A program made the translations under genes and the position numbers. A DNA stretch of 64,000 bases from a phage, in the sequence record PZ583742.1, one strand, 5' to 3'. Below are positions 13,085 to 52,802 of the stretch, piece by piece; the first letter of the stretch is position 1; the number at the start of each line of letters is the position of its first letter. Under the pieces are notes generated by a model. The model was not told the DNA's origin. It searched no databases and saw only the letters and a program-made list of their open reading frames with translations.

Positions 13085-13360
13085 ATGATATACAAGGTTT
13101 GGACGTATATCTCTATTTTTGTTATTGCTGGGATTGCATTTATCCCCACACAAACAGATAGCGAGAGATATGAAAGGGAAATTGAAATAGTAGCAAGTAC
13201 GTACCATTCTGTTAATAAAGAATGCCCGAATAAAAATGGAATAAATTTACAAAAATCACATTATATGCTGACTGTTACTAGTCCAGTGCAAAGAATATGG
13301 GTTGATAGACATTTTTCTGATTTATTTGCAATGTATTGTTTCAAATTTAAAAGATTATAA
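13085..13360 (+). CDS. small membrane protein
   Basis: N-terminal TM segment ISIFVIAGIAFIP. Confidence 0.4.
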   Translation: MIYKVWTYISIFVIAGIAFIPTQTDSERYEREIEIVASTYHSVNKECPNKNGINLQKSHYMLTVTSPVQRIWVDRHFSDLFAMYCFKFKRL

Positions 13361-16380: not shown

Positions 16381-17387
16381 GAACAGTTATGAAAGGCTAC
16401 TTCGGTAGCCATCTTTATGGAACAAGCACTCCGGAATCTGATGTTGATTTTAAAGAAATCTTTGTTCCTCATCCGCGAGATATCCTGCTCGGAACCGCGA
16501 TGAACCATACAAACCTGAACACGAATAACACGGCTACCAAAAATACAAAAGACGATATTGACCATGAACTTTATAGCCTGAAATATTTCTTTAAACTGGC
16601 AGCCGAAGGCGAAACCGTTGCTCTGGACATGATTCACACCCCGGCTAACCTGGTTGTCAAATCCGATTTACCAGATGTATGGAAGTTTATTCAAGACAAC
16701 CGTTCGCGGTTCTATACAACTAACATGAAAGCCTATTTGGGGTACGTCCGTAAGCAAGCTTCCAAATATGGTGTTAAAGGTTCTCGATTGGCTGCACTGC
16801 GTGGTGTACTGGCAATTGTTAACCAGATTCCTGAACAGTGGGTCGATTATCAAGAAGGAATCCCTGATAGACTTCGTCGTACTAAGGTAGAAGATATCAA
16901 ACACAGACTCCCTGAAAACGAGTTCTGTGAATGGGTATTCCATAACCATGAGAAAACAGGTCCACAAACGTTCTATACTGTTCTCGGACGTAAGTACCAA
17001 ACTACTCTGTCATTAATCGAGCTCAAGCAATCTCTGAATAAACTCGACGCCGAATATGGTGAACGTGCTCGTAAAGCAGAAGCTAACGAAGGTATTGATT
17101 GGAAAGCACTGAGCCATGCTTATCGTGCAGGGTATCAATTGATGGAAATCTACCAAACAGGTGACTTGGTATTCCCATTGCGTGAAGCCTCTATCATTAA
17201 GCTGATTAAAGCTGGTGAATTACCATTTAAAGAAGTTCAAGAACTTCTTGAAGATACTGTCGATTTAGTTGAAGTTCTGGCCATCCAGGCTGCTAAGAAT
17301 GGTATGCCTGATAAGGTAGACATGAAGTTCTGGGACAAGTTTGTTGAAGAGGTATACCTTGACAACCACAATTCCTATTATCGTTAA
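16377..17387 (+). CDS. putative nucleotidyltransferase (Pol-beta superfamily fold)
   Basis: N-terminal GS-x10-DVD signature (GYFGSHLYGTSTPESDVDF) plus downstream DDIDHE; 336 aa. Confidence 0.5.
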   Translation: MRTVMKGYFGSHLYGTSTPESDVDFKEIFVPHPRDILLGTAMNHTNLNTNNTATKNTKDDIDHELYSLKYFFKLAAEGETVALDMIHTPANLVVKSDLPDVWKFIQDNRSRFYTTNMKAYLGYVRKQASKYGVKGSRLAALRGVLAIVNQIPEQWVDYQEGIPDRLRRTKVEDIKHRLPENEFCEWVFHNHEKTGPQTFYTVLGRKYQTTLSLIELKQSLNKLDAEYGERARKAEANEGIDWKALSHAYRAGYQLMEIYQTGDLVFPLREASIIKLIKAGELPFKEVQELLEDTVDLVEVLAIQAAKNGMPDKVDMKFWDKFVEEVYLDNHNSYYR

Positions 17388-17394
17388 TGAAGAA

Positions 17395-17583
17395 ATGAAG
17401 GTCTTCTTATCATACGGAAGACCTAATAAAGGTCGGCGCTGGTATCTCGAAGCAGTCTGTCGGGAAACTGGCAGACGAATCAACAATAAGTACATATGTA
17501 AACCAACTCCCAAACAAACTCGCAGGTTTGTTAACTGGGCTATCAATACTATAAGATTCCATAATTTTTGGAGTGCAATCTAA
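17395..17583 (+). CDS. small basic protein
   Basis: 62 aa ORF rich in R/K; followed by terminator. Confidence 0.35.
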   Translation: MKVFLSYGRPNKGRRWYLEAVCRETGRRINNKYICKPTPKQTRRFVNWAINTIRFHNFWSAI

Positions 17584-17603
17584 GGGCCGGATGGCCCTTT
17601 TTT
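17584..17603 (+). terminator. rho-independent terminator between convergent + genes and minus-strand collagen-like gene
   Basis: gggcc-ggat-ggccc followed by TTTTTT. Confidence 0.6.
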
Positions 17604-17605
17604 GT

Positions 17606-18352
17606 TTATGAAGTCACTGTTTGTTCGGCTACTAACAATGCGGAGGTTATTGTAAAGTTGCCGCCATTTGGCATAACAGTTATAGCTGTACCATTGGTTG
17701 CCATTGCCTCATCTTTATCAATGCTAAAGAACGTTGTAAAAGACAAAATATCTGTAGCATTTTCCGGACGATTCTGTATATAAGTGTTTCCGTTGGTTCC
17801 AACGAAATTTAATGTTATACTTCGAGCTTGCGAGGCTCCTGCAAAATTACCAATAAGGTTGAGTTTAAACATTAGGCTTCTGTCTTGGTTATATGGCCAC
17901 AACTTATCATCAGTGGTTCTAAAAAACGGAGATAGAGTCCCTGCAGTCGGTGGAATCCCCTTTAAAACACTAATTATGTTTGAAGTCGTACCATTAGTTA
18001 ATAGAACGTTTATACCACTCCAAAACACCTCGGATTTTTCCCTCTTTCCTGCTGTATCAGTTAAAAAATCATCAACAGTTCCTGTATTTCCCAAGTCAAG
18101 CCATATCTGATAAGAAGATTTTCCATCCCCACCCGGTTCTCCTTTTGGTCCGGGTACACCCGGTTCTCCTTTGGGACCAGGCGGACCCGGTATCTGAGTT
18201 TCCGAGCTGGACATAGTTTGGAAAAAACGCTCTTTGCTATCTGTAGGGGTATTCGGCAACACCATAGTAGAACCAAACAAATACCAATTATCAGCCAAGG
18301 CAGCCTGGACTTTTTCATTGAGTTCATCAACAGTTCTTCCGGATAAAATCAT
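17606..18352 (-). CDS. collagen-like repeat protein with tail-fibre-type motif and beta-rich C-terminal domain
   Basis: Minus-strand 248 aa ORF with RBS AAAGGAG 8 nt before ATG; seven G-X-Y triplets (GPPGPKGEPGVPGPKGEPGGDG) followed by KSSYQIWLDLGNTGTVDDFL, then N/T/S/G-rich C-terminal domain. Confidence 0.7.
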   Translation of the reverse strand: MILSGRTVDELNEKVQAALADNWYLFGSTMVLPNTPTDSKERFFQTMSSSETQIPGPPGPKGEPGVPGPKGEPGGDGKSSYQIWLDLGNTGTVDDFLTDTAGKREKSEVFWSGINVLLTNGTTSNIISVLKGIPPTAGTLSPFFRTTDDKLWPYNQDRSLMFKLNLIGNFAGASQARSITLNFVGTNGNTYIQNRPENATDILSFTTFFSIDKDEAMATNGTAITVMPNGGNFTITSALLVAEQTVTS

Positions 18353-18397
18353 AAACTTTCTCCTTTATGGTTTTATTAAGTATTTTTATTTAGTATA

Positions 18398-18429
18398 TGT
18401 GTACAACCAGATGGTCATGATGCATAATG
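18398..18429 (+). promoter_or_regulatory. early promoter-like element TGTACA-N17-CATAAT
   Basis: TGTACA 18400-18405, CATAAT 18423-18428; lies in the divergent region between minus-strand collagen-like gene and + strand genes. Confidence 0.45.
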
Positions 18430-50242: not shown

Positions 50243-50408
50243 GATTTCTGTCTTCCAGATTTTTGAAGAATATGAAATCGTATCGCAAGACCAAGAAGCA
50301 ATCCATGTTATCGCTGATGATGGTGTTACCTGGATTATTCCGTTGTATCATGAAGACACTTATGAAGTGACTGATGCAAATGGTGATAAAGCTATCTTCG
50401 TTGTATAA
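50217..50408 (+). CDS. hypothetical protein
   Basis: ORF overlapping upstream end. Confidence 0.4.
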   Translation: MSAMCTGSKISVFQIFEEYEIVSQDQEAIHVIADDGVTWIIPLYHEDTYEVTDANGDKAIFVV

Positions 50409-52604: not shown

Positions 52605-52802
52605 CTATATAAGGCCGATTAATGCCAGTGAAACATCTACAACTGATTCGAGCGCGACGACTGGTAATATAACACCATGTGCCATTGCAACTGGAGCAAC
52701 AATGAAGTTCCAGAGTAGAACTAAACAGAGTACCGAAAGGACCAGAATCGTTCGCTTACGACTGCCTTTGATGGCTTGAATTAGACTAGATAGTTTTAGC
52801 AT
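52605..52802 (-). CDS. small membrane protein, minus strand
   Basis: Minus-strand ORF with RBS AAGAAAGGGGG before ATG; late-promoter-like CATAAATA upstream on minus strand. Confidence 0.5.
   Translation of the reverse strand: MLKLSSLIQAIKGSRKRTILVLSVLCLVLLWNFIVAPVAMAHGVILPVVALESVVDVSLALIGLI

Follow-up and report, generated by a model that had tools for sequence, protein, structure and literature searches.

A collagen-stalked knob protein with a DUF1737-like N-terminal domain in a T4-like phage: a possible capsid-anchored accessory fibre

The tail needle (gp9) of phages Sf6 and HS1 bears a C-terminal knob domain (3RWN, 4K6B), and altering the needle tip in P22 changes the rate of DNA delivery (Leavitt et al., 2013, PMC3741392). 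An Sf6-type domain was also reported in 2013 in T4-like phages, among them RB43 and the Aeromonas phages 31 and 44RR2.8t. A C-terminal knob, an N-terminal extension and a conserved glutamate pocket were recorded in these proteins, including the four residues that contact bound L-glutamate, and their function was then unknown (Leavitt et al., 2013, PMC3741392). Here we describe a member of this family encoded on the minus strand, at 17606..18352, of a stretch of phage DNA of 64,000 nucleotides (sequence record PZ583742.1), referred to below as the window. The source is a T4-like phage of the genus Gaprivervirus (Straboviridae). We propose, with a probability of roughly 0.45, that the product of this gene is an accessory fibre, trimeric and made late in infection, that is anchored to the capsid.

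A second described system bears on the opposite end of the protein. In the Shiga toxin phage phi24B, cryo-electron microscopy and proteomics have placed the domain DUF1737 at residues 2-57 of the NanS-p esterase gp84, where it binds as a hexameric ring in the central pore of capsid hexamers and is followed by a Ser-rich linker and then the payload (bioRxiv 10.64898/2026.04.10.717836). T4 Hoc, T5 pb10 and Bas63 Hex-Dec follow the same logic as that proposed here, in which a capsid-binding domain carries a dispensable outward array for weak adhesion, and the gene for Hex-Dec is set apart from the structural module by more than 10 kb (PMC12609058). These three proteins are, however, monomers with immunoglobulin-like domains, and their capsid-binding folds are unrelated to the DUF1737-like domain of the present protein. 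Finally, a collagen helix capped by a TNF/C1q-like trimer is the theme of BclA, BxpB/ExsFA, C1q and PRD1 P5 (Foldseek E=1e-5 to 1e-4). The likeness to BclA- and C1q-type proteins is at the level of fold only (7-14% identity); the stalk is much shorter here and the anchor is different.

In the working that we favour, the protein would be made late and would trimerise through its knob and collagen segments. Three DUF1737 domains would dock the fibre on the particle, most likely at capsid hexamers, as in phi24B. The seven collagen triplets, together with a small helical module (SAYQxW), would form a stalk of a few nanometres whose length can evolve freely, and the glutamate-loaded TNF-like knob would be the distal, exposed head, contacting some ligand, either environmental or on the surface of the host. 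Such a fibre would confer weak, reversible adhesion, much as is thought for Hoc, and would be a dispensable decoration. Virion presence, the docking site on the capsid, trimer formation and adhesin function are what we infer from the domain architecture and the homology of the anchor; among the roles suggested in a first-pass annotation of the window, 'virion decoration or adhesin' is the one that best fits this evidence.

The gene, its integrity and its modules

The open reading frame (ORF) runs from an ATG through 248 codons to a stop codon. Its translation is exactly that quoted in the first-pass annotation, with the seven G-X-Y triplets and the motif KSSYQIWLDLGNTGTVDDFL that follows them. 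The surrounding 3.3 kb are 99.8% identical to Escherichia phage vB_EcoM_RZ (RZ), and the gene has nrdC.11 on one side and the nrdC.9 cluster on the other, away from the tail module. It had been called the largest of only three minus-strand genes in the window. Its rank is upheld against a gene for 65 amino acids (aa) known from RZ and against four other minus-strand ORFs of 99-137 aa, which have no PHROG match; the count is roughly right, with two opposite-strand genes shown by the RefSeq record of RZ over the same span. The gene and the modules of its product are as follows.

17606..18352, minus strand: complete coding sequence, homologue of RZ PP428_gp126 (RefSeq name 'tail needle knob')
18360..18365, minus strand: Shine-Dalgarno sequence AAGGAG, 7 nt ahead of the ATG
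18203..18352, minus strand: N-terminal domain, aa 1-50, divergent DUF1737 (PF08410) by profile and fold, proposed capsid anchor
18188..18202, minus strand: Ser/Thr-rich linker by sequence, aa 51-55 (ETQIP, after SSS), with a lower predicted local distance difference test (pLDDT) score
18122..18187, minus strand: collagen-like stalk by sequence, GPPGPKGEPGVPGPKGEPGGDG, aa 56-77, seven G-X-Y triplets and a final G
18050..18121, minus strand: small helical module KSSYQIWLDLGNTGTVDDFLTDTA, aa 78-101, with helices at 80-86 and 93-101 in the AlphaFold (AF2) model
17609..18049, minus strand: Sf6-type knob, aa 102-248, TNF/C1q-like jelly-roll by matches to PF16532 and 3RWN

The gene is real and under purifying selection. 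The ORF is unbroken, with its 248 codons, in four close relatives (RZ, Yersinia phage vB_YenM_P8 (P8), pEC-M719-6WT.2 and TH54) and free of frameshifts in every carrier. The ratio of nonsynonymous to synonymous substitution rates (dN/dS) is 0.13-0.24 against five homologues, which range from 97% DNA identity down to 55% protein identity, and stays so at dS of at least 0.5. Because of this ratio and the intact ORF in relatives, we regard it as a selected gene, neither a chance ORF nor the degraded fragment, with frameshifts in close relatives, that had earlier been entertained. A selfish or decaying cassette without phage function is, in our estimate, the least probable of all the explanations considered. 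It would accord with the patchy occurrence of the gene among close relatives and the sharp boundaries of the cassette, and a similar knob gene is inserted in vB_SenM-2 relative to Det7. Besides the low dN/dS and the absence of frameshifts, a position conserved across genera, invariant pocket residues and a base composition equal to that of the flanks (GC 0.38-0.43) all speak against decay, and no nuclease or mobility gene is attached to the cassette. A foreign origin on the grounds of base composition was likewise rejected, given the same GC values.

The knob is the most readily recognised module. Residues 99-244 match the Pfam family PF16532 (Phage_tail_NK) at 109.1 bits (E=2.4e-31; gathering score 27 bits), as do 15/15 full-length homologues, and the knob matches PHROG 1030 at 3e-66. 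With phmmer it finds the Sf6 knob 3RWN at E=1.7e-30 and the HS1 knob 4K6B likewise at about 1e-30, and the C-terminal 145 aa are 37-38% identical to these structures. The AF2 monomer model has a mean pLDDT of 81, rising to about 90 or higher in the knob, and superposes on 3RWN in Foldseek (E=3e-16) with a template-modelling (TM) score of about 0.9 (0.88-0.90 when normalised to the target) and a root-mean-square deviation of 2.0 A. Farther fold neighbours include the phi812 spike knob (9eul), BxpB/ExsFA, PRD1 P5, C1q-like proteins and EDA-A1. The beta-rich C-terminal domain foreseen in the first-pass annotation is modelled as a jelly-roll, and the C1q/TNF-type fold suggested there is borne out by the search, in which the Sf6 knob comes nearest and TNF/C1q-type jelly-rolls follow. 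What had gone unrecognised is that the knob belongs to a catalogued family: both knob and gene family are already known and annotated (PF16532; RefSeq 'tail needle knob').

The residues of Sf6 that contact L-glutamate (E146, K200, S248 and D250) align to E108, K163, S210 and D212, which are invariant in 37 diverse homologues. As in the Sf6 and HS1 proteins, the knob is C-terminal and these four contacts are conserved; L-glutamate is probably bound at the subunit interfaces. A knob trimer is to be expected, as for Sf6 and HS1, from homology and from the collagen triplets.

The triplets themselves are uninterrupted and Pro-rich. The run is short, and its Pfam score is accordingly 18.2 bits against a threshold of 27.2 for PF01391, which is exceeded by homologues with longer runs (best E=2.9e-15). 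Stalk length varies among homologues from none to more than 20 triplets and from one to five SAYQxW modules; the RB43 and Miller proteins have no collagen triplets, against seven here. In the helical module, residues G77, S79, Y81, W84, G91 and F96 are invariant among homologues. The module is found in 4-5 tandem copies in P0013, P0014 and P0016, which belong, with the gene at 6001-7140 of L018/L019, to a set of 380-aa homologues from uncultured T4-like phages. In this set the collagen run is swapped for tandem copies of the pattern 'GKSAYQxW..PGN.GK....F' spaced by G-T-N-G. One of these homologues is labelled as a protein of a Bacteroidales metagenome-assembled genome, probably a binning artefact.

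The N-terminal domain and the promoter signature

The first-pass annotation had passed over the N-terminal domain, the part of the protein that is most informative about its location. Residues 1-50 are conserved across all full-length homologues, and the AF2 model gives them a beta-alpha-beta-beta order (strands at 2-5, 24-32 and 42-48, helix at 8-20). When the N-domains were isolated, 14/15 matched PF08410 (E<=1; best E=2.4e-6) and no other Pfam family recurred; one family member, P0247, lies above the PF08410 threshold at 26.2 bits. Profile comparison with hhalign gave 89% probability against a cleaned alignment of phi24B-type DUF1737 sequences (E=2e-6, 42 columns) and 69% against the single gp84 sequence. 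In the reciprocal direction, a profile of the N-domain only, run against 1.84 billion representative proteins, retrieved from outside the family nine proteins of 51-100 aa (E=1.7e-4 to 8e-4), all nine of which exceed the Pfam threshold for DUF1737 (25.6-47.3 bits), as do two tandem-DUF1737 proteins. A Foldseek search of BFVD with the N-domain model returned, beyond its own family, six named DUF1737 proteins (TM 0.69-0.85), the sole recurring name. L11, G27 and Q45 are invariant in the joint alignment, which is collinear. Because Pfam matches, hhalign, the reciprocal profile search and the fold search agree, we take the homology of the N-domain to DUF1737 as established on profile and model grounds, though this copy alone is below the Pfam threshold. 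A further apparent match, P0252 (1355 aa), was discarded because the partial similarity, to a Listeria-Bacteroides repeat protein, is spurious, and a sequence search of the PDB with the N-domain profile gave only coiled-coil noise (E>1).

The resemblance to phi24B gp84 extends to the general layout, namely an N-domain of about 50-57 aa with a helix and three strands, a Ser-rich linker, an outward payload and a gene away from the structural module. There are also differences. The gp84 payload is an esterase with a lectin-like part, gp84 binds as a hexamer and is proteolytically processed, the present protein lacks a counterpart to its Tyr42 'tooth', the two sequences are no more than about 17-20% identical, and the phi24B capsid is T=9 and isometric rather than prolate and T4-type.

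The timing of expression is suggested by the region upstream of the gene, which holds the following element.

18381..18388, minus strand: TAAAAATA, which differs at one position from the T4 late-promoter element TATAAATA and begins 36 nt before the ATG

The 70 nt upstream of the gene, TAAAAATA included, are identical in four relatives. More distant homologues carry the exact element TATAAATA at -30 (MN04), -33 (PEi20) and -65 (L016/L017), or the variant CATAAATA at -29/-30 (RB43, Miller and L018/L019). Both strands of the window (128 kb) hold only three exact occurrences of TATAAATA, at 13356, 50404 and 53689, so that three matches in six short upstream regions are far above chance. All three lie on the plus strand; the statement of the first-pass annotation that the minus strand has no exact TATAAATA is correct for the whole window. 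The RZ late genes gp24, gp26, gp51 and uvsW have TATAAATA at -25 to -36, and the present gene lies on the strand that is used by T4-type late genes. The promoter class, earlier described as unclear, can on this evidence be narrowed. From the upstream sequences we conclude that the gene family would be transcribed from T4-type late promoters, and we infer late transcription for this copy too.

The same evidence bears on an early or middle gene for host interaction or superinfection exclusion, the late-like motif being coincidental. This we regard as improbable. The gene does sit in the nrdC early region, and its own copy of the element is not an exact TATAAATA. It lies, however, on the strand opposite to all surrounding early genes, and no sigma-70-like promoter was found on the minus strand upstream of it. 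In five other lineages the homologues have TATAAATA or CATAAATA upstream, at the distance seen for late genes, and the other opposite-strand gene in the window is also preceded by CATAAATA.

Location on the virion and competing explanations

Both ends of the protein are found with other partners. The knob is paired with unrelated N-termini in other phage groups; in P22-likes it tips the needle, and in Ackermannviridae and 147-kb phages it follows mini-collagens or short peptides. The N-domain, for its part, is combined with other payloads. In P0245 (520 aa), two tandem N-domains precede about seven 30-aa 'IxWR...W..L' repeats, which match 'tail assembly/tail protein' PHROGs, and a C-terminal domain. 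In P0250, a Carvaje-type N-domain precedes Thr/Ala/Val-rich repeats (phrog_9732 match), a payload that also hits a PHROG labelled 'virion structural protein, head and packaging'. Two further proteins, P0251 and P0259, consist of tandem DUF1737 domains alone. Because knob and N-domain each occur with other partners, it would be the anchor, rather than the knob, that sets the location. T4-like myoviruses and Carvaje-like siphoviruses have this N-domain in common, and since they share HK97-type heads but not tails, a location on the head is favoured. The Carvaje-like gene abuts TerL, with which it is co-oriented, and lies upstream of the portal gene in the head-morphogenesis region.

A tail-associated small trimeric fibre, placed at the baseplate, tail tip or neck and serving adsorption or triggering DNA delivery, seems to us somewhat unlikely. 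The homology of the knob to the Sf6/HS1 needle tip, a change of which alters P22 DNA delivery (PMC3741392), would fit such a role, as would the related fold of the phi812 central spike knob (9eul) and the matches of the collagen and SAYQxW segments, and of the P0245 payload, to tail-fibre and tail PHROGs respectively. Compared with the P22-like needle (gp26/Sf6 gp9), however, the present protein has neither plug hairpin nor coiled-coil shaft: its PDB and Pfam matches cover only aa 99-244, and their place is taken by a DUF1737-like N-terminus, a collagen stalk and a helical module. The phage is a T4-type myovirus without a needle socket, and the gene is outside the tail module. T4-type tails carry the gp5/gp5.4 spike and no needle, which counts against a tail fibre of this kind. 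Moreover, the very near relatives VR20, VR7 and UPEC07 share the tail genes yet lack this gene, the same N-domain serves myoviruses and siphoviruses with unlike tails, and the sole structural datum for DUF1737 concerns a capsid.

We also consider unlikely a late non-virion protein, that is, a soluble trimer released at lysis or acting on the envelope, in which DUF1737 merely oligomerises. By binding debris or receptors of the host, such a protein might prevent progeny from being trapped; it might also condition the environment. Most DUF1737 proteins are single-domain proteins of unknown role, some of them in giant viruses and bacteria, NanS-p/gp84 was long considered a released enzyme, and the present gene lies among non-structural accessory genes. 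Against this, inspection of the 248-aa sequence revealed no signal peptide or membrane segment, and an anchor followed by stalk and knob is the layout usually seen in displayed fibres. Purified virions have yielded knob-only homologues: gp119 of the Vi01-like phage Sajous1 gave 16 spectra from CsCl-purified particles, and the LIMEstone1 homologue is annotated as 'unknown structural protein'. The position of the Carvaje gene beside TerL also argues against a released product.

Several observations weigh against a capsid-anchored fibre. The N-domain of this copy scores 17.5 bits against PF08410 (E=0.0037; gathering score 24), and a Foldseek search of the PDB with its model returned nothing under E=0.4. 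The capsid-binding role of DUF1737 is known from a single podovirus preprint. The beta2-beta3 loop, LPNTPTDSKER, has no aromatic residue to match the gp84 Tyr42 'tooth'; an aromatic is present in the loop of RB43-type (SYHN), fHe-Yen9-01 (IYDS) and PEi20 (QFDS) homologues, and the loop is variable among DUF1737 proteins generally. DUF1737-fold proteins also occur in BFVD among giant viruses (Yasminevirus, Harvfovirus, Terrestrivirus, Edafosvirus and Hyperionvirus). As giant viruses are without HK97-type capsids, DUF1737 is not exclusively a binder of HK97 hexamers, and its function may be the more general one of oligomerisation or docking. A trimer is expected here and DUF1737 forms a hexamer in phi24B, a mismatch for which the Sf6 needle in its hub offers a precedent. 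In P22-like phages the same knob is on the tail. The promoter element of this copy, TAAAAATA, departs from the consensus and is a candidate for use by gp55. A search of the literature consulted for virion proteomics or transcripts of phages that carry full-length homologues (fHe-Yen9-01, P8, Carvaje and RB43) yielded nothing usable. Lastly, RZ encodes a Hoc-like protein, and T4 Hoc sits at hexamer centres.

If the capsid-anchored fibre is correct, a wider generalisation can be put forward, which we hold more loosely still. The protein could represent a third class of head decoration in the T4 family besides Hoc and Soc: a trimeric, DUF1737-docked fibre on gp23 capsomers with a glutamate-binding TNF-like knob and an adjustable stalk, perhaps competing with Hoc or sitting as a pair of trimers on each hexamer. 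A cassette of late promoter, gene and terminator might then have been exchanged among T4-like myoviruses and Carvaje-like siphoviruses, with DUF1737 possibly acting as a universal docking adaptor for swappable payloads (esterase, knob or repeat arrays).

The 2013 report included neither the identity of the N-terminal domain, nor the late-promoter motif, nor synteny (PMC3741392). As far as the literature consulted shows, the DUF1737-like anchor, and hence the probable head location, the late-promoter signature and the synteny next to nrdC.11 are new. Because of this anchor, the probable head location contradicts the propagated label 'tail needle knob', and if the protein is on the head, a label now being copied into hundreds of genomes of large phages gives the wrong place for it. 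In that case T4-like phages, among them ones considered for therapy and food safety such as Yersinia phage P8, would bear a surface adhesin that has gone unnoticed, with possible consequences for immunogenicity, for apparent host range and for retention in mucus or on cell debris. The DUF1737 capsid anchor would extend from one Stx podovirus to myoviruses and siphoviruses, and would provide a compact docking tag of roughly 50 aa for phage display. Should the protein be an ordinary accessory fibre, the gain is a corrected domain annotation (DUF1737-like, collagen and PF16532).

Within Gaprivervirus, the hoc locus itself is hypervariable (VR7, L010 7817-11175, compared with RZ, L020 5487-6335). 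VR7 and VR5 have a 367-aa hoc together with a further Hoc-like gene, two copies of gp24 and a gene for a 427-aa collagen-repeat protein (ORF196w). In RZ there is a single gp24 and a single Hoc-like gene, of 282 aa. The knob gene is present in RZ and absent in VR7. The idea that VR7 ORF196w, beside hoc, shares the DUF1737 anchor was rejected, as it has no DUF1737 domain.

Terminator, distribution and neighbouring genes

Two further features frame the gene; neither is assigned to a strand.

17582..17605: GC-rich hairpin that follows the stop codon directly and has a T-run on the plus strand only
17588..18398: variable cassette of terminator, gene and promoter, delimited by comparison with VR7 and VR20

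The hairpin at 17582-17599 folds with -14.3 kcal/mol on the plus strand and -12.7 kcal/mol on the minus strand. Its stem, GGGCC/GGCCC, is the same in all relatives (including L011-L013), and its 4-nt loop varies (ATCC, AGAT or GTAT); a constant stem with a varying loop is the pattern expected of a structure under selection. The first-pass annotation had it as a terminator shared by the convergent genes. The hairpin is real and does fold on both strands, but a U-run follows it on the plus strand only, and it would therefore be primarily the terminator of the convergent plus-strand operon, and at best a weak one for the minus-strand gene. Just before it, at 17341-17583 on the plus strand and with a probable true start at 17395, lies a very basic ORF of 62-80 aa (phrog_8921, E=9e-40) that runs from an overlap with the 3' end of nrdC.11 up to the hairpin. 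It is annotated in P8 (ORF110) and VR7 (ORF100c), though not in the RefSeq record of RZ, and is absent from VR20.

Full-length homologues, with the same three or four modules, are present in the Dhakavirus phages MN04 and C6 (about 83-85% identity), Kanagawavirus PEi20 (55%), Yersinia phage fHe-Yen9-01 (56%), the Pseudotevenvirus phages RB43 and Miller (46-47%), Cronobacter and Klebsiella T4-likes, and uncultured contigs. Among the T4-like homologues of Leavitt et al. (2013, PMC3741392), the RB43 protein is 46% identical over 100% of its length and is encoded at the same locus in the same orientation. In RB43, Miller, PEi20, MN04 and two metagenomic lineages the homologue is a lone opposite-strand gene convergent with the nrdC.11/RlaP nucleotidyltransferase, from which it is separated in some genomes by one to three small ORFs. 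The gene is thus not an 'insert' particular to this phage, contrary to what the first-pass annotation had implied: it keeps its place and orientation by nrdC.11 in Dhakavirus, Kanagawavirus, Pseudotevenvirus and uncultured contigs. That T4 has no equivalent at this position is confirmed, a 114-bp gap without any opposite-strand gene lying between nrdC.11 and nrdC.10.

Within Gaprivervirus, only about 8 of more than 30 genomes are carriers. In VR7, 397 bp with an unrelated plus-strand ORF replace 17588-18398 of the window; in VR20, 42 bp replace 17388-18398, and the right-hand junction is the same in both. A tblastn search of VR7 and VR20 for remnants of the knob gene found none, and the choice between loss and gain consequently rests on phylogenetic distribution only. 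On that basis the locus looks like an old gene in a fixed position, sporadically lost or replaced (T4, VR7, VR20), as the simplest history.

Elsewhere in the window, the only other well-supported opposite-strand gene is at 52605-52802 on the minus strand. It encodes a hydrophobic protein of 65 aa (phrog_2024, E=2.5e-26; RZ gp058) and has CATAAATA, the variant of RB43 and Miller, about 24 nt upstream of its ATG. At least the plus-strand TATAAATA sites at 50404 and 53689 stand 25-35 nt before an ATG with a good ribosome-binding site, which suggests that some 'early-strand' genes may also be transcribed late. In Miller (L006, 2973-3001) and RB43 (L004), only 27 nt separate the start of the knob gene from the start codon of a divergent gene for a C-5 cytosine methyltransferase. 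Here CATAAATA overlaps that start codon (CAT, or ATG on the other strand), such that the putative late promoter spans the start of the neighbouring gene.

A natural comparison for an effect on host range, though anecdotal, is offered by Yersinia phage P8 (L011), which was isolated on Yersinia enterocolitica and carries the knob gene, and its published closest relative, the E. coli phage UPEC07 (98.7% identity over 94%), which does not.

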